A stretch of 36,569 nucleotides of DNA from a virus (taxonomy: Duplodnaviria > Heunggongvirae > Uroviricota > Caudoviricetes), in the IMG/VR virus record IMGVR_UViG_2684622554_000001; one strand, 5' to 3'. Position 1 is the first letter of the stretch. The number at the start of each line of letters is the position of its first letter. A program made the position numbers and the translations under genes. Below the pieces are notes generated by a model. That model saw only the letters and a program-made list of their open reading frames with translations, was not told where the DNA came from and did no database searches. This document shows, piece after piece, positions 753 through 36,569 of this stretch.

Positions 753-1766
753 TTACTCTACTGTGGACACTGTGTGGACACTCTCGACCTCAGTACCACC
801 TCTTAGCGGATTAAGAGAAATGGCGTCCTGAAGGTACTCTGGCGCAAAATGAGCGTAAACCATAGTTTGCTCAATCCGCGTGTGACCTAGTATCCGTTGT
901 AGCGTGATAATACTTCCTCCATTAATCATGAAATGAGTGGCAAAGCTGTGCCTTAGTGCATGTGTAGCTTGCCCCATTGGCAAATCCGGTTTTATTGCTT
1001 TCATTGTTCGTCTGAAGCGAGGGTAATCAGCATCAGGGAATAAAAAACCTCGTTTGTTATCCGCGATCATTTTGGCAACAGCCTCTGAGATCGGGACGGT
1101 GCGTGGTTTGTTTGTTTTCGTTTTAACAAACGTGACGCGGTTATGGATGATATTTTCTGCTTTCAAACGAGCTGCTTCTCCCCAACGTGCTCCAGTACTC
1201 AGGCAAAGAATCGCAATCTTTTTGTTGTCGCCGTCAAGAGCAGCAAGCAGTAAGGCAATTTCTTCCTGCGTGAGATAGCCTGTGTCTGGTTTTTCCTCCT
1301 TAAGCCTTTTTGTCCCTCTGATAGGGTGCTCACCAAAGAATAACTCCGCTTCAATCAGGGCTGTAAACATGCCGCTAATACATGTTAAATCACGATTGAT
1401 ACTCGAAGGTTTAATACCCTGACTTCTTCGGGTGGCGCAGTACTGGCTGATAAGCGATTTCGTAATTTGAAATGCGCATGGGTCATTCGTTATTTTTGTG
1501 AAGATTTCAATTTTCCCAAGATTAGATTTCCCATGCTCTTCGTGTTTACCCTTTAAATCCCACCAGATCTGTGTCAGCTCCGACAGACGTCGCTTGTCTG
1601 TTGGTTTTGATAGCCATTCTTTATTGTGGTGGTTGTACAACGTGTATTTCTCGAAAGCGACAGCTTCGCTTTTCTTATCAAACTTCCTACGGATGCGTTT
1701 TCCATTACGTCCAGTAGGGCGGATGTCCACTTCATATCGACCATCATCGAGTTTTTTGATTGCCAT
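753..1766 (-). CDS. int: Tyrosine integrase (P2 Int-like)
   Basis: 337 aa, the same length as P2 Int. C-terminal HALRHSFATHF and LGHTRIEQTMVYAH motifs fit the tyrosine recombinase R..HxxR..Y catalytic set. ATG at 1766 is preceded by a GGAGGG SD. Adjacent to the att core. Confidence 0.95.
   Translation of the reverse strand: MAIKKLDDGRYEVDIRPTGRNGKRIRRKFDKKSEAVAFEKYTLYNHHNKEWLSKPTDKRRLSELTQIWWDLKGKHEEHGKSNLGKIEIFTKITNDPCAFQITKSLISQYCATRRSQGIKPSSINRDLTCISGMFTALIEAELFFGEHPIRGTKRLKEEKPDTGYLTQEEIALLLAALDGDNKKIAILCLSTGARWGEAARLKAENIIHNRVTFVKTKTNKPRTVPISEAVAKMIADNKRGFLFPDADYPRFRRTMKAIKPDLPMGQATHALRHSFATHFMINGGSIITLQRILGHTRIEQTMVYAHFAPEYLQDAISLNPLRGGTEVESVHTVSTVE
763..781 (+). promoter_or_regulatory. 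Direct repeats TGTGGACAC x2, candidate Int arm-type binding sites
   Basis: TGTGGACAC at 763..771 and 773..781, inside the 3' end of int and next to the att core. The P2 arm-site consensus is recalled from memory. Confidence 0.45.
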
Positions 1767-3311: not shown

Positions 3312-3536
3312 ATGCATACAGTTTCTGAAAATCAGTGCGGTAAATACGCATTACTGCTGCAACAGGCCAGAACCGAAGCACAGGCCGATGCAGCGACGCG
3401 CTTTTCTTCTCATCTTGACGCCATGATTCGCCACATCACAAAGGCGGAATTATCCCGCGTGGAGATAGTCGAGCTGCTCAGTCAGGAGTCGGAAAAATTT
3501 CACAATATCGGATTGTCTCGCGGGGAGGTGCTTTGA
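3312..3536 (+). CDS. Hypothetical early protein (P2 orf80 position)
   Basis: ATG at 3312 with a GGAG SD. The track ORF starts at a GTG at 3282. Stop overlaps the next start (TGATG). Confidence 0.5.
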
Positions 3537-3838
3537 TGTCCTGTTCTCGTTCAGTTGTATTACTGAATAACGCCTTAAAAATCGCCGTTATGAAAAATGG
3601 CGATTTATCTCTTATTCAACTTGGTCTTGATAAAGAAAAACGCGAAATAACTGAGTCTGTTATCGCGATTTATCAGAACGAATTAAATCTCCTGTCTGAT
3701 GTGGTCAATTTACTTGTTAAACGCGCTGTATTTCACAAGCAAATCTCCTCCGTGGATGAACTGACGAAATTAACGACAGAAATTGCCAGCTATTGCGCTG
3801 ATGAATTTAAAAAACTTAACGACAAAAGGAGCTGGTAA
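3536..3838 (+). CDS. Hypothetical early protein (P2 orf81 position)
   Basis: ATG at 3536 with a GGAGG SD. About 100 aa. Translationally coupled to its neighbours. Confidence 0.5.
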   Translation: MSCSRSVVLLNNALKIAVMKNGDLSLIQLGLDKEKREITESVIAIYQNELNLLSDVVNLLVKRAVFHKQISSVDELTKLTTEIASYCADEFKKLNDKRSW

Positions 3839-4062
3839 TGCCGGACAACGTAGATTTTATTCAGGAACAACAGGCTGAATTACTGGAGCGTCAGATTAAC
3901 GCGGCAAGGGTAAAACATTGCGGTGCTTCTGCGCTGATTTGCGAAGAGTGTGACGCGCCAATACCTGCTGCCCGTCGTGCGGCTTATCCGTCAGCCACGC
4001 GTTGTGTTTCCTGCCAGTCAGTCTTTGAAGCAAAAAACAAACATTACCGGAGAACGGCATGA
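3838..4062 (+). CDS. TraR/DksA-family C4 zinc-finger protein (P2 orf82 position)
   Basis: 74 aa with CEECDAPIP...x17...CVSCQ (CxxC-x17-CxxC). AAGGAG SD. Confidence 0.8.
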   Translation: MPDNVDFIQEQQAELLERQINAARVKHCGASALICEECDAPIPAARRAAYPSATRCVSCQSVFEAKNKHYRRTA

Positions 4063-4334
4063 GTATTCGTATTGAAATTGGCGAACGTTATGTCGTTACC
4101 AGTGACAGCTTTCAGTTTATTCTCCACGAGAAAAAGAGAGCGGAAAGCGGTAAAAACGCCGGTCAGGAATGGCTGGCGGTGGTTGGTTATTATCCGAAAT
4201 TAAGCCAGCTCGTTTCCGGCCTGATGCATCACGATATTCTGACCGGAAGCGCAAAGTCTTTTGCTGATTTAAACGCGCAGGTTGAGCAACTCAGCAAGCG
4301 TTGTTCAGAGGCTTTTGGCTCATATGGCCGTTAA
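4059..4334 (+). CDS. Hypothetical early protein (P2 orf83 position)
   Basis: 91-aa ORF, ATG at 4059 with a GGAG SD. Overlaps the A start. Confidence 0.5.
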   Translation: MSIRIEIGERYVVTSDSFQFILHEKKRAESGKNAGQEWLAVVGYYPKLSQLVSGLMHHDILTGSAKSFADLNAQVEQLSKRCSEAFGSYGR

Positions 4335-6600
4335 AGCCTCCGGGCGTTTTGTCCCTCCGTCAGCATTTGCTGCAGGCACCGGTAAGGCGTTTACCGGTGC
4401 TTATGCATGGAACGCGCCACGCGAGGCTGTCGGGCGCGAAAGACCCCTTACACGTGACGAGATGCGTCAGGTGCAAGGTGTTTTATCCACGATTAACCGC
4501 CTGCCTTACTTTTTGCGCTCGCTGTTTACGTCACGCTATGACTACATCCGGCGCAATAAAAGCCCGGTGCACGGGTTTTATTTCCTCACATCCACTTTTC
4601 AGCGTCGTTTATGGCCGCGCATTGAGCGTGTGAATCAGCGCCATGAAATGAACACCGACGCGTCGATGCTGTTTCTGGCTGAGCGTGACCACTATGCGCG
4701 CCTGCCGGGAATGAATGACAAGGAGCTGAAAAAGTTTGCCGCCCGTATCTCATCGCAGCTTTTCATAATGTATGAGGAACTCTGCGATGCCTGGGTGGAT
4801 GCGCATGGCGAGAAAGAATCGCTGTTTACGGATGAGGCGCAGGCTCACCTGTATGGTCATGTTGCTGGCGCTGCACGTGCTTTCAATATTTCCCCGCTCT
4901 ACTGGAAAAAATACCGTAAAGGGCAGATGACCACGAGGCAGGCATATTCTGCCATTGCCCGTCTGTTTAACGATGAGTGGTGGACTCATCAGCTTAAAGG
5001 CCAGCGTATGCGCTGGCATGAGGCGTTACTGATTGCTGTCGGGGAGGTCAATAAAGACCGTTCTCCTTATGCCAGTAAACATGCCATTCGTGATGTGCGT
5101 GCGCGCCGCCAGGCAAATCTGGAATTTCTTAAATCGTGTGACCTTGAAAACAAGGAAACCGGCGAGCGTATCGACCTTATCAGTAAGGTGATGGGCAGTA
5201 TTTCTAATCCAGAAATTCGCCGGATGGAGCTGATGAACACCATCGCCGGTATTGAGCGTTACGCTGCCGCAGAGGGTGATGTGGGGATGTTTATCACGCT
5301 GACCGCGCCGTCAAAGTATCACCCGACACGTCAGGTCAGAAAAGGCGAAAGTAAAACCGTCCAGCTAAATCACGGCTGGAACGATGAGGCATTTAATCCA
5401 AAGGATGCGCAGCGTTATCTCTGCCATATCTGGAGCCTGATGCGCACGGCATTCAAGGATAATGATTTACAGGTCTACGGTTTGCGTGTCGTCGAGCCAC
5501 ACCACGACGGAACGCCGCACTGGCATATGATGCTTTTTTGTAATCCACGCCAGCGTAACCAGATTATCGAAATCATGCGTCGCTATGCGCTCAAAGAGGA
5601 TGGCGACGAAAGAGGAGCCGCGCGAAACCGTTTTCAGGCAAAACACCTTAACCGGGGCGGTGCTGCGGGATATATCGCGAAATACATCTCAAAAAACATC
5701 GACGGCTATGCACTGGATGGTCAGCTCGATAACGATACCGGCAGACCTCTGAAAGATACTGCCGCGGCTGTTACTGCATGGGCGTCAACGTGGCGCATCC
5801 CGCAATTTAAAACGGTTGGTCTGCCGACAATGGGGGCTTACCGTGAACTACGCAAATTGCCGCGCGGCGTCAGCATTGCTGATGAGTTTGACGAGCGCGT
5901 CGAGGCTGCACGCGCCGCCGCAGACAGTGGTGATTTTGCGTTGTATATCAGCGCGCAGGGTGGGGCAAATGTTCCGCGCGATTGCCAGACTGTCAGGGTC
6001 GCCCGTAGTCCGTCGGATGAAGTTAACGAGTACGAGGAAGAAGTCGAGAGAGTGGTCGGCATTTACGCGCCGCATCTCGGCGCGCGTCATATTCATATCA
6101 CCAGAACGACGGACTGGCGCATTGTTCCGAAAGTGCCGGTCGTTGAGCCTTTGACTTTAAAAAGCGGCATCGCCGCGCCTCGGAGTCCTGTCAATAACTG
6201 TGGAAAGCTCACCGGTGGTGATACTTCGTTACCGGCTCCCACACCTTCTGAGCACGCCGCAGCAGTGCTTAATCTGGTTGATGACGGTGTTATCGAATGG
6301 AATGAGCCGGAGGTCGTGAAGGCGCTCAGGGGCGCATTAAAACACGGGCTGGGAACGCCAAATCGTCAGCAAAGAAACGGAAGCCCGTTAAAACCGCATG
6401 AAATTGCACCATCGGCCAGACTGACCCGGCCGGAACGATTGCAAATCACCCGTATCCGCGTTGACCTTGCTCAGAACGGTATCAGGCCGCAGCGATGGGA
6501 GCTTGAGGCGCTGGCGCGTGGGGCAACCGTAAATTATGACGGGAAAAAATTCACGTATCCGGTTGCTGATGAGTGGCCGGGGTTCTCGTTACCCATTTGA
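4324..6600 (+). CDS. A: Replication initiation endonuclease gpA (rolling-circle HUH nickase)
   Basis: 758 aa from the ATG at 4324 (the track start at 4282 is a TTG). Contains the HUH-type motif HWHMMLF. Size close to P2 A as recalled. Confidence 0.95.
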   Translation: MAVKASGRFVPPSAFAAGTGKAFTGAYAWNAPREAVGRERPLTRDEMRQVQGVLSTINRLPYFLRSLFTSRYDYIRRNKSPVHGFYFLTSTFQRRLWPRIERVNQRHEMNTDASMLFLAERDHYARLPGMNDKELKKFAARISSQLFIMYEELCDAWVDAHGEKESLFTDEAQAHLYGHVAGAARAFNISPLYWKKYRKGQMTTRQAYSAIARLFNDEWWTHQLKGQRMRWHEALLIAVGEVNKDRSPYASKHAIRDVRARRQANLEFLKSCDLENKETGERIDLISKVMGSISNPEIRRMELMNTIAGIERYAAAEGDVGMFITLTAPSKYHPTRQVRKGESKTVQLNHGWNDEAFNPKDAQRYLCHIWSLMRTAFKDNDLQVYGLRVVEPHHDGTPHWHMMLFCNPRQRNQIIEIMRRYALKEDGDERGAARNRFQAKHLNRGGAAGYIAKYISKNIDGYALDGQLDNDTGRPLKDTAAAVTAWASTWRIPQFKTVGLPTMGAYRELRKLPRGVSIADEFDERVEAARAAADSGDFALYISAQGGANVPRDCQTVRVARSPSDEVNEYEEEVERVVGIYAPHLGARHIHITRTTDWRIVPKVPVVEPLTLKSGIAAPRSPVNNCGKLTGGDTSLPAPTPSEHAAAVLNLVDDGVIEWNEPEVVKALRGALKHGLGTPNRQQRNGSPLKPHEIAPSARLTRPERLQITRIRVDLAQNGIRPQRWELEALARGATVNYDGKKFTYPVADEWPGFSLPI

Positions 6601-6860
6601 GTAAAAACACAACGTGATTTGATATGGCATTGAATGGCTTATGCGGAGCAGTTATGGGGCAGCAGAAGGTCAATAGCATGCTGAATTAGAAGGCTAAATG
6701 CTATTGAGTGACTAGCATGTCGGTAAGGACGGCCGTTTGATCCGGGTCATAAAAGGCCATCCATTTAGTCTAATAAAATCATTGCGGGTAACCTTATGTC
6801 GACGCATAATTCATCTTGAGCGAAGTCTTGTCAGTCTTTCATCGTATTGATGATGGGCGC

Positions 6861-6893
6861 AAAAAAACCACCCTGGCAGGTGGTTTTTTTGTT
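6861..6893. terminator. Bidirectional rho-independent terminator
   Basis: AAAAAAACCACC-CTGGCA-GGTGGTTTTTTT: perfect 6-bp GC stem flanked by an A-run and a T-run. Sits after A (+) and after the small ORF (-). Confidence 0.7.
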
Positions 6894-6902
6894 TGAAGCA
6901 TA

Positions 6903-7016
6903 TTAAAGCATAATGCTGACATTGATATTACTGACGTTTACTGACAAACCACTCGGACTACCGTTTGGATAGCCAAAGAGGGCCAGAACGAGCATGCAGT
7001 AATAGCATTTCTTCAT
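6903..7016 (-). CDS. Putative 37-aa small hydrophobic protein (MKKCYYCMLVLALFGYPNGSPSGLSVNVSNINVSIML)
   Basis: ATG at 7016..7014 preceded by AGGAGG with a 4-nt spacer. Followed by the 6861..6893 terminator. Only strongly signalled ORF in the tin/old slot. No recognisable family. Confidence 0.3.
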   Translation of the reverse strand: MKKCYYCMLVLALFGYPNGSPSGLSVNVSNINVSIML

Positions 7017-7494
7017 ATTGCCTCCTGTAAGTAGAGGGCAACTTCCACCGGTATATGCGCTTCTTAGGTGGAATGACTTTTGAGCGAAGTCTTGCCCTGA
7101 AATAATGCTCTGTTTAAACGCAAAGTGATTTGGCATATCACCGAACAGAGAGCCGGAAAAACACAACATATAGTATGTCGTTGTTTCTAGACATACATTC
7201 TATGTTGTGTAACAAGGGCTTTGCATTAAACATGTTTGAGATTTTATTGATGTAGCTCAAAGTAAAAAACAGAGACTACGGTTGATAAGGTCTTGAAAGC
7301 AATGTAAATTTTTTAAAGTTGCCAATTGCTTAAAAATGTACAGTTGCGGTATGGCGTACTTAAAAAGCTATGCATGCAACAAGTGAATGTTTTTGCATGC
7401 GTTGGGGATGTCCGTTCAGGCTGCGTGCGGTCAGGACTGGTGCGGATCCATAGTATCTATGCAACTGCATTAAAACCGCCCCGTGAAGCGGGCG

Positions 7495-7513
7495 GGCGAG
7501 GCGGGGAAAGCAC
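7495..7513. other. cos site (19-nt P2/P4-type cohesive end GGCGAGGCGGGGAAAGCAC)
   Basis: Exact match to the P2/P4 cohesive-end sequence as recalled. Embedded in a GC-rich palindromic context. Confidence 0.8.
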
Positions 7514-7657
7514 TGCGCGCAGCCCGTCAAGAATAAAAAACTCTCTTGCAGGTAGAAAACATTCTGTTAACATTTGTCTGGATGAAGTTTAAGTTAGAAA
7601 TTTATGTTAATGAACTGATTGATACTTATGTTTTGTCAATAATTTAGGAATGTTAAG

Positions 7658-8794
7658 ATGACAAGCTATGTTACATGGGCAAATAAAGGTGGAATAGGTA
7701 AATCAACATTATCTTTCCAATTGGCGTTAAAATACGCGAGATTAAACACGAATAAAAAAGTAATCATAATAGATATGAGCCCTCAGTGTGATGTCTCTAG
7801 AATGTTATTGGGGGGAGGGCATTTTAACGGTGAGCAAAAGATCTTGGATAGAATGACCTCTAATCCAAGGTTGACAATTTACCGGTATCTTGAGGCCTGT
7901 GTTAATGATGTTCCTTCTGGGAGGGGATGGCCTGATTCATTATCATACTTAATTGAACCTAATTCTTTTCGAGACGAAAACGCAGAAAAATTGCCTGATA
8001 ATATTAGTATGGTCTGTGGAGATTTCGACTTAGAGAGGGTTACTCATAGTTTAGATAATTTGCCACAACCTCAACCAAGAGGCGGGCGTGTTCCGTCGGG
8101 TGCTCATTACTCAGCATATTTATTGCCACGCACTTTTCTACGGAAAATGGTGGAGGACTTTGAGCGCGAATACAGGGATGTGACAATTTTTATTGATACA
8201 GATCCATATTATTCGGTAGTAACAACACATCTGGGGCTTCTGGCTGCAGACAGGTTGATTTCGGCATACTCTCCTTCATCTCAAGCAAGCCAGTATGCAG
8301 TATATCGTAGCTTAGAGTTTCTATACGATCCTAATTATGGACTGGTGCAAGAGGTTAATACACAGAGAGCAATATATGGTACCCCTTGGTTTGATAGTTT
8401 AAATAATATAATTACAACACCGAATATATCTGTTGCAAATCTTTATATGGTAGTAAGTAACATGAATACGCCTCAGGCTGGAAGAGGACAACCTCCATAC
8501 AGCCAACCCCAAAAACTACATAGACAATCGCAACAAGAAGTTATATCTAGAATTAATGACACATTAAGTAGTTTGGGGATCGCGCATGATTATGTTCATG
8601 ACTATTTATGGGATCTCAAGAGATTAGGTTTGATTTGTGATTATAATGGTTTTGATTTAGCAACAATTCAATTAGGGGAAAATTATGCGGAACCAAGTGA
8701 TGATGGTAATTATTATGTAAATACTACAGGTGGAACACCGATCCAATTATCATCCTATAATGCTAGGATCGAAACTGTTACATCAAAACTATAA
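7658..8794 (+). CDS. Cargo A: ParA/MinD-type P-loop ATPase with about 180-aa C-terminal extension of unknown function
   Basis: 378 aa. Deviant Walker A (K10-GGIGKST17), A' motif VIIIDMSPQ, Walker B-like TIFIDTDP. AT-rich relative to the phage backbone. Own terminator. No adjacent parB-like or centromere partner. Confidence 0.85.
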   Translation: MTSYVTWANKGGIGKSTLSFQLALKYARLNTNKKVIIIDMSPQCDVSRMLLGGGHFNGEQKILDRMTSNPRLTIYRYLEACVNDVPSGRGWPDSLSYLIEPNSFRDENAEKLPDNISMVCGDFDLERVTHSLDNLPQPQPRGGRVPSGAHYSAYLLPRTFLRKMVEDFEREYRDVTIFIDTDPYYSVVTTHLGLLAADRLISAYSPSSQASQYAVYRSLEFLYDPNYGLVQEVNTQRAIYGTPWFDSLNNIITTPNISVANLYMVVSNMNTPQAGRGQPPYSQPQKLHRQSQQEVISRINDTLSSLGIAHDYVHDYLWDLKRLGLICDYNGFDLATIQLGENYAEPSDDGNYYVNTTGGTPIQLSSYNARIETVTSKL

Positions 8795-8801
8795 GAACTA
8801 G

Positions 8802-8822
8802 GGGAGCAAATGCTCCCTTTCT
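8802..8822. terminator. Rho-independent terminator between cargo A and Q (convergent)
   Basis: GGGAGC-AAAT-GCTCCC hairpin followed by TTTCT. Confidence 0.5.
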
Positions 8823-8866
8823 ATATATGGGTTATTAATTACCCGCTTATATAAATATTGAAGAAA

Positions 8867-9886
8867 CTATAGGGTGTATTGTCTGAATTTTATTACATTC
8901 TGACCGAGCCAGCCGTTTATTTCCCGAATCCTGTCCTGTAACGGGATAAGCTCATTGCGGACAAAGACCTTTGCCACTTTCTCAATATCACCCAGCGACC
9001 CGACGTTCTCCGGCTTGCCACCCATCAACTGAAAGGGGATGCGGTGTGCGTCCAGCAGGTCAGCGGCGCTGGCTTTTTTGATATTAAAAAAATCATCCTT
9101 CGTTGCCACTTCACTGAGCGGGATAATTTTAATGCCGTCGGCTTTCCCTTGTGGGGCATAGAGAAACAGGTTTTTAAAGTTGTTGCGGCCTTTCGACTTC
9201 ACCATGTTTTCGCGGAGCATTTCGATATCGTTGCGATCCTGCACGGCATCGGTGACGTACATGATGTATCCGGCATGTGCGCCGTTTTCGTAATACTTGC
9301 GGCGGAACAGCGTGGCCGACTCATTCAGCCAGGCAGAATTAAGGGCGCTCAGATATTCCGGCAGGCCGTACAGCTCCTGATTGATATCCGGCTCCAGCAG
9401 GTGAAACACGGAGCCGGGCGTGAAGGCTGTCGGCTCGTTGAAGGACGGCACCCACCAGTAAACATCCTCCTCCACGCCACGGCGGGTATATTTTGCCGGT
9501 GAGGTTTCCAGTCTGATGACCTTACCGGTGGTGCTGTAACGCTTTTCCAGAAACGCATTACCGAACACCAGAAAATCCAGCACAAAGCGGCTGAAATCCT
9601 GCTGGGAAAGCCACGGATGCGGGATAAATGTCGAGGCCAGAATATTGCGTTTGACGTAAATCGGTGAGCTGTGATGCACGGCAGCACGCAGGCTTTTTGC
9701 CAGACCGGTAAAGCTGACCGGTGGCTCATACCATCTGCCGTTACTGATGCACTCGACGTAATCCAGAATGTCACGGCGGTCGAGTACCGGCACCGGCTCA
9801 CCAAAGGTGAATGCCTCCATTTTCGGGGCGCTGGCGGTCATTTTTTTTGCCGCAGGTTGCGGTGTTTTCCCTTTTTTCTTGCTCAT
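8867..9886 (-). CDS. Q: Portal protein gpQ
   Basis: 339 aa with a basic N-terminus MSKKKGKTPQPAAKK. Position next to cos and P. The start codon ATG (9886..9884) lies inside the IS target duplication, and the native SD is now on the far side of the IS. Confidence 0.9.
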   Translation of the reverse strand: MSKKKGKTPQPAAKKMTASAPKMEAFTFGEPVPVLDRRDILDYVECISNGRWYEPPVSFTGLAKSLRAAVHHSSPIYVKRNILASTFIPHPWLSQQDFSRFVLDFLVFGNAFLEKRYSTTGKVIRLETSPAKYTRRGVEEDVYWWVPSFNEPTAFTPGSVFHLLEPDINQELYGLPEYLSALNSAWLNESATLFRRKYYENGAHAGYIMYVTDAVQDRNDIEMLRENMVKSKGRNNFKNLFLYAPQGKADGIKIIPLSEVATKDDFFNIKKASAADLLDAHRIPFQLMGGKPENVGSLGDIEKVAKVFVRNELIPLQDRIREINGWLGQNVIKFRQYTL

Positions 9887-24073: not shown

Positions 24074-25615
24074 ATGAGCACAAAATTCAGAACCGTTATC
24101 ACCACTGCCGGTGCAGCAAAGCTGGCAGCGGCAACCGCGCCGGGAGGGCGGAAGGTCAACATTACCACGATGGCCGTCGGGGATGGCGGTGGTAAATTGC
24201 CTGTCCCGGATGCCGGACAGACCGGGCTTATCCATGAAGTCTGGCGACATGCGCTGAACAAAATCAGCCAGGACAAACGAAACAGTAATTATATTATCGC
24301 AGAGCTGGTTATTCCGCCGGAGGTGGGCGGTTTCTGGATGCGTGAGCTTGGCCTGTACGATGATGCGGGAACATTAATTGCCGTGGCGAACATGGCCGAA
24401 AGTTATAAGCCAGCTCTTGCCGAAGGCTCAGGGCGTTCGCAGACCTGTCGCATGGTCATCATCGTCAGCAGTGTGGCCTCAGTGGCGCTGACCATTGACA
24501 CCACAACGGTGATGGCGACGCAGGATTACGTTGATGACAAAATTGCAGAGCATGAACAGTCACGACGTCACCCGGACGCCTCGCTGACCGCAAAAGGTTT
24601 TACTCAGTTAAGCAGTGCGATCAACAGCACGTCTGAAACACTGGCCGCAACGCCGAAAGCGGTAAAGGCCGCGTATGATCTTGCTAACGGGAAATACACT
24701 GCGCAGGATGCCACCACAGCGCGAAAAGGCCTTGTCCAGCTCAGTAGCGCCACCAACAGCACGTCTGAAACGCTCGCCGCTACACCAAAAGCGGTAAAGG
24801 CAGCATATGACCTTGCTAACGGGAAATACACTGCACAGGACGCCACCACAGCGCGAAAAGGTCTTGTCCAGCTCAGTAGCGCCACCAACAGCGATTCTGA
24901 AACGCTTGCAGCAACGCCAAAGGCGGTTAAGACAGCGTATGACCTTGCTAACGGGAAATACACTGCGCAGGATGCCACCACGGCGCGAAAAGGCCTTGTC
25001 CAGCTCAGTAGCGCCACCAACAGTGATTCTGAAACGCTGGCCGCAACACCAAAAGCAGTGAAGTCTGCCTATGACAATGCTGAAAAACGTCTTCAGAAAG
25101 ATCAGAACGGTGCGGATATTCCGGGAAAGGATACCTTCACGAAAAATATCGGTGCCTGTCGTGCTTATAGCGGCGCTTTGAGCACTGAAGCCGGAAACTG
25201 GACAACCGCTCAGTTTATTGAATGGCTGGATTCCCGTGGTGCATTTAATCATCCGTACTGGATGTGCAAATGTTCATGGTCATACGGCAATAATAAAATT
25301 ATTACCGATACTGGCTGTGGAACTATTCATCTTGCAGGTTGCGTTATTGAGGTTATGGGTAATAAAGGTGCCATGACCATCCGTGTAACAACACCAAGCA
25401 CTTCCACCGGAGGCGGCACCACTAACGCTCAATTCACTTATATTAATCATGGTGATGCTTATGCTCCTGGCTGGCGACGAGACTACAACACGAAAAACCA
25501 GCAGCCTGCATTTGCTTTAGGGAAAACAGGAAGCACTGTCGGAAATGATAAAGCTGTTGGCTGGAACTGGAATAGCGGGTCTATCAAGCAAATATTGGTG
25601 GCGCATCGACATTAA
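24074..25615 (+). CDS. H: Tail fiber protein gpH (N-terminal and repeat region); likely continues into 25630..26001 through a frameshift
   Basis: N-terminal about 180 aa resemble the P2 gpH N-terminus (MSxKFRTVITTAGAAKLAAATAPG...). GAGGA SD. Ends abruptly at ...LVAHRH. Confidence 0.85.
   Translation: MSTKFRTVITTAGAAKLAAATAPGGRKVNITTMAVGDGGGKLPVPDAGQTGLIHEVWRHALNKISQDKRNSNYIIAELVIPPEVGGFWMRELGLYDDAGTLIAVANMAESYKPALAEGSGRSQTCRMVIIVSSVASVALTIDTTTVMATQDYVDDKIAEHEQSRRHPDASLTAKGFTQLSSAINSTSETLAATPKAVKAAYDLANGKYTAQDATTARKGLVQLSSATNSTSETLAATPKAVKAAYDLANGKYTAQDATTARKGLVQLSSATNSDSETLAATPKAVKTAYDLANGKYTAQDATTARKGLVQLSSATNSDSETLAATPKAVKSAYDNAEKRLQKDQNGADIPGKDTFTKNIGACRAYSGALSTEAGNWTTAQFIEWLDSRGAFNHPYWMCKCSWSYGNNKIITDTGCGTIHLAGCVIEVMGNKGAMTIRVTTPSTSTGGGTTNAQFTYINHGDAYAPGWRRDYNTKNQQPAFALGKTGSTVGNDKAVGWNWNSGSIKQILVAHRH
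24608..25075 (+). repeat. In-frame tandem repeat inside H: 132-bp (44-aa) unit, about 3.5 copies
   Basis: LSSA[TI]NS[TD]SETLAATPKAVK[AT]AYDLANGKYTAQDATTARKGLVQ repeated. Causes long spurious antisense ORFs in the track. Confidence 0.9.
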
Positions 25616-35036: not shown

Positions 35037-35063
35037 AAAAAATAAGCCCGTGTAAGGGAGATT
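35037..35063. repeat. attR core, 27-bp P2-type attachment core (AAAAAATAAGCCCGTGTAAGGGAGATT)
   Basis: Direct repeat of the 647..673 copy. Forms the 3' terminus of cyaR. Confidence 0.85.
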
Positions 35064-35123
35064 ACACAGGCTAAGGAGGTGGTTCCTGGTACAGCTAGCA
35101 TTTTATGGGTTATGTTTTTCAGC
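35037..35123 (-). ncRNA. cyaR: CyaR (RyeE) Hfq-dependent sRNA; its 3' end is the prophage attachment core
   Basis: The reverse complement matches the recalled 87-nt E. coli CyaR sequence (GCUGAAAAACAUAACCCAUAAAAUGCUAGCUG...CGGGCUUAUUUUUU). Confidence 0.9.
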
Positions 35124-35207
35124 GAAACGGATGATAACCTTAATAAATGCAGCTGTATGTGATCGGTTTCTAAGAATTTTCCATCCGGGAAAAATAATCG
35201 AAATTAA

Positions 35208-36569
35208 TCACTTACCGTGGGGGTTACGCGTGGTTTCCCCGGAGAAATTACGCATCAGCAGCGCGTAATTTAGCTCAAGATCCTGCGGCACCGGGAGCCA
35301 CACAGTATAACCATCGCCTGGTGCGACCGGCATAGCTTCACCTTTGGCGTTTTCCATGTGCTCAAGGGTAAAGTTAATGTTGCCTTGCGGCGTCATTAGC
35401 TCAAGGCTGTCGCCAACGGAGAATTTATTTTTCACCGCTACCGCCGCGAGGTCCCCCTTGCGCTCACCGGTAAACTCACCAACAAACTGCTGGCGGTCAG
35501 AAACTGAATAACCGTATTCGTAGTTCTGATAATCGTCGTGAGTATGACGACGCAGGAAACCTTCGGTATAGCCACGATGCGCCAGACCTTCCAGAGTTTC
35601 CAGCAGGCTGGTATCGAACGGTTTGCCCGCAGCGGCGTCATCGATAGCTTTACGGTAAACCTGCGCGGTGCGTGCGCAATAGTAGAAAGATTTGGTACGG
35701 CCTTCGATTTTCAGCGAATGCACGCCCATTTTGGTCAGGCGTTCAACATGGGCGATGGCGCGCAGATCTTTCGAGTTCATGATGTAAGTGCCGTGCTCAT
35801 CTTCAAACGCGGTCATATACTCGCCCGGACGCTGGGCTTCTTCGATCATAAACACTTTGTCGGTTGGCGCGCCGATACCCAGCGTCGGCTCAACATTTTG
35901 CACCGGAATCGGCTCGTACTTGTGTACGATGTTGCCAACGTCATCTTCTTTCCCTTCCTGGACGTTGTACTCCCAGCGGCAGGCGTTGGTGCAGGTGCCC
36001 TGGTTCGGGTCGCGCTTGTTGATATAGCCAGAGAGCAGGCAGCGACCGGAGTAGGCCATGCACAGCGCGCCGTGAACGAAGATTTCGATTTCCATATCCG
36101 GCACCTGATTGCGGATCTCTTCAATCTCTTCCAGTGACAGTTCGCGAGAGAGGATCACGCGGGTCAGGCCCATTTGCTGCCAGAATTTCACCGTCGCCCA
36201 GTTCACGGCGTTAGCCTGTACCGAGAGATGGATCGGCATTTCAGGGAAGTGCTCACGCACCAGCATAATCAGCCCTGGATCGGACATAATCAGCGCATCC
36301 GGCCCCATTTCCACCACCGGTTTCAGGTCACGGATAAAGGTTTTCAGCTTGGCGTTGTGCGGTGCAATGTTGACCACGACATAAAACTTTTTCCCCAGCG
36401 CGTGGGCTTCGTTAATGCCGAGTTGAAGATTTTCGTGGTTGAATTCGTTGTTGCGCACACGCAGGGAGTAACGCGGCTGGCCCGCATAAACAGCATCTGC
36501 GCCATAAGCGAAAGCGTAACGCATATTTTTCAGCGTTCCCGCCGGGGAAAGGAGTTCCGGTTTAAACAT
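35208..36569 (-). CDS. yegQ: Peptidase U32-family protein YegQ/TrhP (tRNA hydroxylation)
   Basis: 453 aa, MFKPELLSPAGTLKNMRYAFAYGADAVYAG. Start codon at the extreme window edge (36569..36567). Host gene next to cyaR, as in E. coli. Confidence 0.9.
   Translation of the reverse strand: MFKPELLSPAGTLKNMRYAFAYGADAVYAGQPRYSLRVRNNEFNHENLQLGINEAHALGKKFYVVVNIAPHNAKLKTFIRDLKPVVEMGPDALIMSDPGLIMLVREHFPEMPIHLSVQANAVNWATVKFWQQMGLTRVILSRELSLEEIEEIRNQVPDMEIEIFVHGALCMAYSGRCLLSGYINKRDPNQGTCTNACRWEYNVQEGKEDDVGNIVHKYEPIPVQNVEPTLGIGAPTDKVFMIEEAQRPGEYMTAFEDEHGTYIMNSKDLRAIAHVERLTKMGVHSLKIEGRTKSFYYCARTAQVYRKAIDDAAAGKPFDTSLLETLEGLAHRGYTEGFLRRHTHDDYQNYEYGYSVSDRQQFVGEFTGERKGDLAAVAVKNKFSVGDSLELMTPQGNINFTLEHMENAKGEAMPVAPGDGYTVWLPVPQDLELNYALLMRNFSGETTRNPHGK

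Follow-up and report, generated by a model that had tools for sequence, protein, structure and literature searches.

The question raised by this locus is what a P2-like prophage keeps between its replication gene A and its cohesive-end site, cos, when that interval is far shorter than in phage P2. The locus lies in IMG/VR virus record IMGVR_UViG_2684622554_000001, a DNA of 36,569 nucleotides that is referred to below as the window. Here 894 bp separate the stop codon of gene A from cos, as compared with 3.27 kb in P2, where the counterpart carries orf91, tin and old; the initial annotation, made from the sequence alone, had correctly put the interval at under 0.9 kb against several kb in P2. 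It had described a 37-codon hydrophobic open reading frame (ORF), a bidirectional terminator and short repeats, and had offered three readings: a small toxin or type I toxin-antitoxin (TA)-like module, a leader peptide, or the scar of a deleted cargo cassette. That list of features was right, but a plus-strand small RNA, a promoter of the nrdDG type and a wide distribution had been missed.

Comparison with relatives leads us to read the DNA from ~6741 to ~7316 as an autonomous, mobile RNA module with two genes, acting in the manner of a type I TA pair, and we assign this reading a probability of about 0.6. Of the three earlier readings it is the one most favored, by selection on the ORF, a convergent small RNA and a repeat that may form a seed and its target; the support lies in the architecture, and the function is a proposed one. 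The parts of the module are the following, where SD denotes the Shine-Dalgarno sequence.

~6741-7316, no strand assigned: whole mobile module, ~575 bp; approximate outer homology limits against the plasmid, N15-like and inovirus-associated copies
6782..6810, plus strand: predicted sigma-70 promoter of the small RNA (-35 TTGCGG at 6782-6787, 17-nt spacer, -10 CATAAT at 6805-6810)
6818..6893, plus strand: predicted small RNA of ~73-76 nt, candidate antitoxin or repressor (seed 6818-6832, hairpin 6834-6858, terminator hairpin, U-tail)
6860..6891, no strand assigned: bidirectional intrinsic terminator (arms 6860-6872 and 6879-6891, 13 bp, 100% complementary; 6-nt loop; A7/T7 flanks)
6903..7016, minus strand: gene for a 37-residue small protein, MKKCYYCMLVLALFGYPNGSPSGLSVNVSNINVSIML (stop codon TAA at 6905..6903)
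7021..7039, minus strand: SD AGGAGG (7026..7021) and upstream anti-SD GCCCUCU (7039..7033), predicted sequestration
7082..7096, minus strand: predicted small RNA target in the mRNA leader, corresponding to the second 15-mer copy at 7080-7094
7108..7150, minus strand: leader hairpin (CUCUGUU-CGGUGAU...AUCACU...-AAACAGAG; CUCUGUUCGGUGAU...AUCACUUUGCGUUUAAACAGAG)
7161..7210, minus strand: NrdR-box-like pair (box 2 ATACTATATGTTGTGT, 7176..7161, 6/6 key positions; box 1' ACACAACATAGAATGT, 7210..7195, 4/6)
7187..7202, minus strand: -10 TAGAAT (7202..7197) and predicted mRNA start near 7190 (+/-4)
7215..7316, minus strand: homologue of the nrdDG promoter (FNR-1 TTAATGCAAAGCCC, 7229..7216, degenerate; FNR-2 TTGAGCTACATCAA, 7260..7247, 9/10 to consensus)

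Extent and distribution of the unit

Copies of the unit on Klebsiella plasmids align from ~6741 to ~7310, and the alignment to a distant copy (L032, 73%) starts exactly at 6771. All 894 bp of the interval are present at an identity of at least 99% in ~114 E. coli genomes, and coverage of at least 80% is found in 149 of 5426 (~3%), E. coli W among them. Two deep P2-type alleles differ unevenly along the interval: gene A is 90-100% identical between them, positions 6582-6781 are 75-77% identical and positions 6782-7181 are 88-95% identical, while from 7080 to 7150 there is one difference in 71 nt between alleles whose spacer differs by 25%.

Beyond P2-like phages the module has been recovered from quite varied surroundings. 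In an N15-like phage-plasmid it is flanked by repA and the protelomerase gene; it adjoins the secretin, Zot and DUF2523 genes of filamentous phages (inoviruses) in some copies, and is found at varied sites on ~390 plasmids, mostly conjugative IncF plasmids, with 395 of the 415 matching records coming from Klebsiella; among the carriers is an IncHI1B/IncFIB plasmid from a liver-abscess isolate (pGN-2). It is also present in 31 metagenome contigs, one of which (L063) carries two diverged copies, at 3332-3887 and 6254-6808, that lie 2.9 kb apart and belong to different clades, one with perfect NrdR boxes and the other without. Across the GTDB species-representative genomes, the leader hairpin used as an anchor gave a single match, in a metagenome-assembled genome that is probably misbinned. 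The module evidently lives on accessory elements and, by this distribution, is autonomous and horizontally mobile. No description of it was found in Rfam, the protein family libraries, RefSeq annotation or the searchable literature.

Two convergent genes, their predicted RNAs and an nrdDG-type promoter

The small protein gene is real, as judged from the way in which it varies. The minus-strand ORF had been described correctly at 6903..7016, with AGGAGG 4 nt from its ATG, the SD lying at 7026..7021. The protein has 37 residues in 64 of 68 copies (all 64 with a readable ORF), and 38 in one distant member, and its 14 variants share M1, C7, L11, L13, G15, Y16, P17, S22 and S25. Variable sites fall on codon positions 1, 2 and 3 in the proportion 18:11:28 within the ORF, as compared with 19:18:20 in the 63 nt upstream, and the ratio of nonsynonymous to synonymous substitution (dN/dS) between clades is 0.09-0.41; from this codon-position bias and these ratios it follows that the ORF is under purifying, coding selection. 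An extended ORF of 88 residues (7169..6903), called by some pipelines, was rejected, since its upstream part is without codon periodicity (5:4:5 by hand; 19:18:20). After its basic N-terminus the protein has a hydrophobic helix, then a Gly-Tyr-Pro break and finally an uncharged tail in which Ser or Asn alternates with Val or Ile. It fits the small hydrophobic protein, under 60 residues long, that type I TA systems in general encode; its hydrophobicity is modest, the C-terminal half is polar and uncharged except for one Asp in one variant, and position 24 is either Trp or Leu.

On the opposite strand, the promoter elements TTGCGR and CATAAT are invariant in all clades, with free variation in the 17-nt spacer that separates them and in the 7 nt following the -10; the sequence becomes invariant again at GAGCGAAGTCTTG, the predicted transcription start (G6818). 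The RNA predicted from this start (76-78 nt) folds at -29.5 kcal/mol (z = -4.4). Seventeen distinct versions and two more distant ones were compared, and the central hairpin, although it differs in sequence between clades, always pairs: both sides have changed in five of its seven base pairs, and 96.9% of cells are paired. Its covariation score is 0.234, against 0.140 in shuffles, with none of 500 shuffles as high and all slid controls lower. The G-U pairs of this hairpin would be A-C mismatches on the opposite strand, and thus fit the plus strand only. Such a pattern of conservation and covariation is the signature of a small RNA gene. An Rfam scan at the gathering threshold returned only CyaR, elsewhere in the window, and a permissive scan of 6500-7700 scored 16-26 bits at best, where the thresholds are 43-60, the terminator being behind all of these matches.

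The terminator is the perfect palindrome that had been placed at 6861..6893, coordinates that prove right to within 1-2 nt (6860-6891). It is near-invariant in every copy found, with rare changes only in the length of the flanking A/T runs, and it is common to the predicted small RNA, to the mRNA of the small protein and, in the prophage, probably also to the early operon that ends in gene A. It escaped a simple terminator scan, apparently since the stem is prolonged by the A/T runs. An unrelated viral contig (L037, 5920-5946) shares only the 27-nt terminator.

The two RNAs may be connected by a repeat. The 15-mer TTGAGCGAAGTCTTG had been reported at 6816..6830 and 7080..7094 and is indeed found there, on the same DNA strand. 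The accompanying remark that it is near chance expectation holds for the whole window, in which 0.66 exact direct repeats of 15 nt are expected, but not for copies within 500 nt of each other, for which the expectation is 0.013. Both copies are kept in all relatives. The first is the invariant 5' end of the small RNA; the second corresponds to the predicted target, 66-80 nt upstream of the ATG, with which nucleotides 1-15 of the small RNA would pair. Over the non-terminator parts, the predicted duplex between the small RNA core and the mRNA has an energy of -38.9 kcal/mol, as compared with -25.7 +/- 3.1 for shuffled small RNAs, none of 1000 being as good. The 15-bp duplex of seed and target is retained in all clades, and every natural change in the target preserves the pairing, as G-U or with a matching base in the small RNA, whereas the opposite strand assignment would lose it: T>C occurs in L032 and in the clade of L045, G>A in L043 as well as L078, and C>T in L077, where a U in the small RNA matches it. 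Comparison supports reading the two 15-mer copies as the small RNA's seed and as the site in the mRNA leader that it targets. A second direct repeat (D1, 6605-6634 and 7116-7145, 73%) is not co-conserved in allele 2 and was treated as chance.

The predicted leader, ~174 nt long, is structured. In its consensus fold, columns 160-167 pair with 175-181, which would join SD and anti-SD; this is an energy-based prediction with few compensatory changes. Part of the target is predicted to lie in a small hairpin loop, and the 5' end is predicted to pair with codons inside the ORF. The hairpin at 7108..7150 hardly varies between any of the clades, less than the ORF does, and its closing pairs change compensatorily in L032 and L077; it served as the anchor for the later searches, however, so that its invariance in those matches is partly by construction. 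This conservation suggests that the hairpin has a sequence-specific partner, which could be a protein, an RNase, a ribosome standby site or another RNA.

Upstream of the leader, the promoter of the module is homologous to that of nrdDG, the host operon for anaerobic ribonucleotide reductase, as an alignment of 7215-7316 at ~78% over 102 nt to the treC-nrdD intergenic region, found in 5426 of 5426 E. coli genomes, indicates. The orientation is such that nrdD-type transcription runs on the minus strand, toward the 37-residue ORF. The alignment keeps FNR-2 (TTGAGctacATCAA), FNR-1, their 31-bp spacing and the 27 nt from the start of FNR-1 to the -10, and the position of the -10 is the same as that of TAAAAT in E. 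coli nrdDG and in all relatives. Boston and Atlung in 2003 and Roca et al. in 2008 reportedly placed FNR sites at -64.5 and -33.5. Control of the module family by FNR is, on these grounds, a good inference. The nrdDG operon is activated by FNR and repressed by NrdR (PMC2892513, PMC12176259, PMC1805755).

NrdR sites consist of two 16-bp boxes with key positions C4, A6, A8, T9, T11 and G13, set 15-16 bp apart (PMC13584703; box rules also in PMC12176259). The only two matches to ACACWATATATWGTGT with at most three mismatches in the 36.6-kb window are the NrdR-box pair, as against 0.22 expected. Box 1' overlaps the -10, and its linker to box 2 is 18 bp, a non-canonical length (16 bp in the second allele). 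Two boxes with 6/6 key positions occur in L077, with a linker of 15 bp, in L032, with 16 bp, and in L043, L045 and L078, with 26 bp, one helical turn more; in all five, the overlap of box 1 with FNR-1 is 4 nt, just as it is in nrdDG. By these comparative positions, NrdR control is ancestral in the family but eroded, and its operation in the window allele is doubtful. The bare core CNANATNTNG was rejected as evidence, with six matches in the window against 9.4 expected, a chance level, and the weight placed on NrdR rests on the fuller consensus and the comparative positions only. Two of the bare-core matches lie at 8370-8379 and 8821-8830, in and after a ParA-like gene. An unrelated viral contig (L040, 3113-3135) shares only 23 nt around box 2.

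Proposed mechanism, known relatives and rival readings

In the mechanism that we infer, which extends to both transcripts and their ends, to repression by pairing, to the toxicity or other activity of the peptide and to control by FNR and NrdR, a minus-strand promoter copied from nrdDG would drive an mRNA of ~330 nt that ends at the bidirectional terminator. This mRNA would be translationally locked, its SD being held in a leader hairpin. The constitutive-looking plus-strand promoter (TTGCGG-17-CATAAT) would give a convergent RNA of ~73 nt ending at the same terminator, and this steadily made RNA would restrain the mRNA by pairing far upstream of the ribosome-binding site (RBS), with the complementary terminator hairpins as a possible second contact. 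The pairing may block a standby or processing step, or may trigger cleavage. Protein would then appear only once the mRNA is made faster than the small RNA, or once the element has been lost. FNR would raise synthesis of the mRNA under anaerobic conditions, and in copies with intact boxes the release of NrdR at low dATP would do so too.

A bolder extension, offered tentatively and with the odds against it, is that mobile elements, namely P2-like, N15-like and filamentous phages and the conjugative and virulence plasmids of Klebsiella, captured the host promoter and that it couples a small membrane-active peptide restrained by a dedicated small RNA to oxygen and deoxynucleotide (dNTP) status. 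The module would then be a type I toxin switch that senses the nucleotide pool and anaerobiosis, in the service of persistence, abortive infection or post-segregational killing, and it would be the first NrdR target other than a ribonucleotide reductase. NrdR is described as a ribonucleotide-reductase-specific repressor (bioRxiv 10.1101/2024.05.27.596032).

The arrangement resembles two kinds of known TA locus. In par of the Enterococcus plasmid pAD1 (fst/RNA II), convergent promoters share one bidirectional terminator, which is common to both RNAs and whose hairpins pair (PMC7472228). Module and par have in common the convergent promoters and the shared intrinsic terminator, a direct repeat that is transcribed in opposite directions and so gives a second region of complementarity, and an SD sequestered by an intramolecular stem, predicted in the case of the module; the Fst/Ldr family, like the module, occurs on both plasmids and phages. 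Pairing at the two direct repeats of par, DRa and DRb, covers the toxin translation initiation region, whereas the module has one repeat, 66-80 nt upstream of the ATG, and the module peptide does not show the Fst/Ldr signature of a transmembrane helix, a conserved Trp and a C-terminal end that is highly charged. The hosts of the module are Gram-negative, unlike those of par, and its toxin-side promoter, again unlike that of par, is a copy of the regulated nrdDG promoter.

The second resemblance is to the E. coli class of zorO-orzO, tisB-istR-1 and shoB-ohsC, in which a short trans pairing takes place within a long 5' untranslated region. The zorO mRNA has a leader of ~180 nt in which the 5' end of the small RNA pairs at a site 73-91 nt upstream of the start, and 15 continuous base pairs suffice for repression (PMC3919570). 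Class and module share a leader of ~175-180 nt, pairing by the extreme 5' end of the small RNA upstream of the RBS (PMC3919570) and a complementarity of 15-18 nt. A toxin promoter of this class can be stress-regulated, by LexA in the case of tisB, where the inputs proposed for the module are FNR and NrdR. In contrast, the genes of this class are divergent and fixed at chromosomal loci, whereas those of the module are convergent with a common terminator and mobile, and the module has no peptide or RNA sequence similarity to zorO-orzO, tisB-istR-1 or shoB-ohsC. Since the Fst/Ldr signature is absent, the single repeat lies off the initiation region, the genes are not divergent and no homology is found, the module belongs to neither class.

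The promoter itself has its nearest counterpart in the nrdDG promoter of E. coli and Salmonella, with ~100 nt of true homology, FNR sites 31 bp apart and the same distance from FNR-1 to the -10. Several relatives of the module share with nrdDG an NrdR box 1 that overlaps FNR-1 by 4 nt, and in these relatives box 2 follows 15-16 bp downstream, or one helical turn farther on (PMC12176259, PMC2892513). The difference is that the nrdDG promoter drives a ribonucleotide reductase and the module promoter a 37-residue ORF, and that the window allele has lost the canonical box 1, has a 4/6 box on the -10 and has a linker of 18 bp.

The serious rival to the TA-like reading gives the peptide a non-toxic accessory role. 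It holds that the 37-residue product is a membrane or secreted protein, such as a lysogenic-conversion or plasmid fitness factor, which is made together with the anaerobic ribonucleotide reductase and whose level is tuned by the small RNA; we regard this as rather unlikely, but as an explanation to be taken seriously. Classical type I toxins have a long helix and a charged tail, both absent from the peptide (PMC7472228), its alternating polar and aliphatic C-terminal half suggests a specific interaction, the position is that of a moron or hotspot gene (PMC9122126), and a dedicated environmental promoter copied from nrdDG would suit a conditional function. However, the convergent small RNA, the long leader, the predicted sequestration of the SD and the 5'-end pairing far upstream are what one commonly sees at type I TA loci and seldom with benign small proteins. 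The same holds for residence on plasmids and prophages and for duplication on one contig (L063), and no partner gene was linked to the module in any context examined.

Several observations weigh against the TA-like reading itself. The peptide is atypical of type I toxins in its short hydrophobic stretch (~13 residues), its Gly-Tyr-Pro break and its uncharged, Ser/Asn-rich tail, and a single-sequence AlphaFold2 model places a helix at residues 3-14 with low confidence (pLDDT, the model's own confidence score, of 62). Comparison of the peptide with Pfam, NCBIfam, PHROG, PADLOC and PDB sequences gave no match, toxin models included, and a phmmer search of 1.84 billion representative proteins recovered only the peptide's own small family. 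RefSeq annotation has no feature over the region. Both promoters and both RNA ends are sequence-based predictions. FNR-1 is degenerate (TTAAT...) in the window allele, although it scores 9/10 in plasmid copies; the 4/6 box 1' and 18-bp linker weaken the NrdR site of that allele, and perfect-core NrdR boxes are missing from the commonest clade on Klebsiella plasmids. The wider searches were anchored on the leader hairpin, which biases the recovered set, and most of the sequence diversity comes from a few deep clades, so that the covariation counts reflect few independent events. Finally, the module was not found in the checked part of plasmid pKPN3 of K. pneumoniae MGH 78578 (positions 30000-135500), and the published small RNA list of that strain consequently gives no test.

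Two small RNA candidates from pKPN3, KpnR_127 and KpnR_128, were set aside as support for the module, being beside a hok gene and unrelated. They flank an annotated Hok-family toxin gene (L080, pKPN3 133742-134491), which is a different type I TA locus on the same type of plasmid.

A different view makes the plus-strand RNA the sole functional product, either as the 3' untranslated region or terminator region of the early (gene A) operon or as a small RNA that acts in trans on targets in host or phage, with the conservation of ORF and leader as a secondary matter. In P2-type prophages the small RNA does follow gene A immediately on its strand and shares its terminator, and seed and terminator are the most invariant parts. 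We nevertheless consider this view improbable: on plasmids and in other phages the unit is found in the absence of gene A, each time accompanied by ORF, leader and nrdDG-type promoter; coding selection acts on the ORF; and the small RNA has a conserved promoter of its own.

Conserved non-coding, cos-proximal DNA in related prophages had been named by the initial annotation, together with a lack of any transcript or ribosome footprint, as the outcome that would refute its reading, and a cis-acting role in packaging or replication is the corresponding explanation. It is true of one sub-segment, 7371-7494, which adjoins the cohesive end and whose conservation reaches phage 186, but it is very improbable for 6741-7316. 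The latter segment is absent from P2, 186 and most peduoviruses, occurs on plasmids without a cos site, and is separated from cos by other genes in MET_P1 and P2DC1.

The reading as a deletion scar or an unfilled cargo slot, its ORF and repeats due to chance, would agree with the shortness of the A-to-cos interval (894 bp against 3.27 kb), with the blank RefSeq annotation and with a 15-mer that is near chance over the whole window. Rather than marking deletion end points, both repeats belong to a unit of ~575 bp that, with an intact 37-residue ORF, was found in four kinds of unrelated mobile element, phages and plasmids alike; together with the conservation gradient, the covariation and the coding selection, these comparative data refute the scar, which has next to no probability left. 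Equally hard to credit is a leader peptide or attenuator for a downstream gene, for which a short ORF, a strong SD, a terminator hairpin after it and weak Rfam matches resembling Phe leaders (23-26 bits, below the 55-bit threshold) could be cited, since the ORF runs straight into the terminator, no gene follows on the minus strand and gene A faces the ORF and terminator, the peptide sequence is itself under selection, and no alternative antiterminator pairing is conserved.

Setting in P2-like prophages and significance

The window is a P2-like prophage, and the following features surround the module.

753-1766, minus strand: integrase gene
4282-6600, plus strand: replication gene A (PF05840; stop codon 6598-6600)
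6601..6740, no strand assigned: variable spacer after the gene A stop, outside the module, containing a 10-bp inverted repeat (6670-6679/6698-6707)
7371..7513, plus strand: cos-proximal packaging flank and 19-nt cohesive end, an ordinary P2/186 feature outside the module
8867-9886, minus strand: portal gene Q

The spacer has no homology in the non-P2 copies of the module. Its inverted repeat had been given as 9 bp at 6671..6706 and is present, with 10 bp rather than 9; a poorly conserved spacer and its disruption in allele 2 make it probably a product of chance. On the far side of the module, the 19-nt cohesive end GGCGAGGCGGGGAAAGCAC at 7495-7513 is identical to P2 cosR, as are the preceding ~45 nt to the right end of P2, and the flank 7371-7494 is 72-98% conserved in P2, 186 and the peduoviruses of Yersinia, Salmonella and Erwinia.

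Accessory and anti-phage genes are known to occupy a hotspot that runs from gpA to gpQ and encloses cos (PMC9122126). In the prophage of the window, the variable cargo of this hotspot is a gene past cos, at 7658-8794 on the plus strand between cos and portal gene Q, which encodes a ParA/MinD-like P-loop ATPase of 378 residues; the protein matches PF13614, PF01656 and phrog_164, and had no match in PADLOC. The description of the slot as nearly empty does not hold, since the hotspot spans gpA to gpQ across cos and the ParA-like cargo gene lies beyond cos. E. coli W has the block on the gene A side, then cos, then a different cargo, with an AAA ATPase gene and a hypothetical gene in place of the ParA-like gene. 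Salmonella phage MET_P1_103_31 and 'P2DC1' carry the first ~735 bp at 86-87% immediately behind gene A, and further genes intervene between this block and cos. From these three layouts it follows that the block is a constant neighbor of gene A, with the variable cargo beyond it. The module shares with the P2 tin/old region its place beside cos between gpA and gpQ (PMC9122126) and its organization as a self-contained transcription unit with its own promoter and terminator. It differs in that it is not a protein defense system, is far smaller, occurs also outside P2-like phages and, unlike tin/old, remains constant next to gene A while the cargo varies beyond.

Other features lie elsewhere in the window. 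The right end of the prophage is flanked by the host small RNA CyaR (35040-35125, minus strand; Rfam, 100.7 bits) and a host peptidase U32 gene (35208-36569, minus strand), so that the window includes host DNA and an integration site next to cyaR. Within the tail-fiber gene (24074-25615), a tandem repeat of 132 bp in 3.4 copies with 88% matches (24622-25075, plus strand) corresponds to Pfam Phage_fiber_2 repeats.

For P2 biology, the finding means that the gene A-side part of the gpA-cos interval is a constant module and not variable defense cargo. More generally, a pair of a small protein and a small RNA appears to have escaped annotation. The copy of the nrdDG promoter raises the questions of whether control by NrdR and FNR reaches beyond ribonucleotide reductase, and of why a mobile element should read dNTP and oxygen status. 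If the pair is a type I TA module, it would represent a new family in Enterobacterales with a par-like convergent layout, which has been described for the par loci of Gram-positive bacteria (PMC7472228), and it may aid the maintenance of plasmids or prophages, or else stress tolerance in the anaerobic gut.

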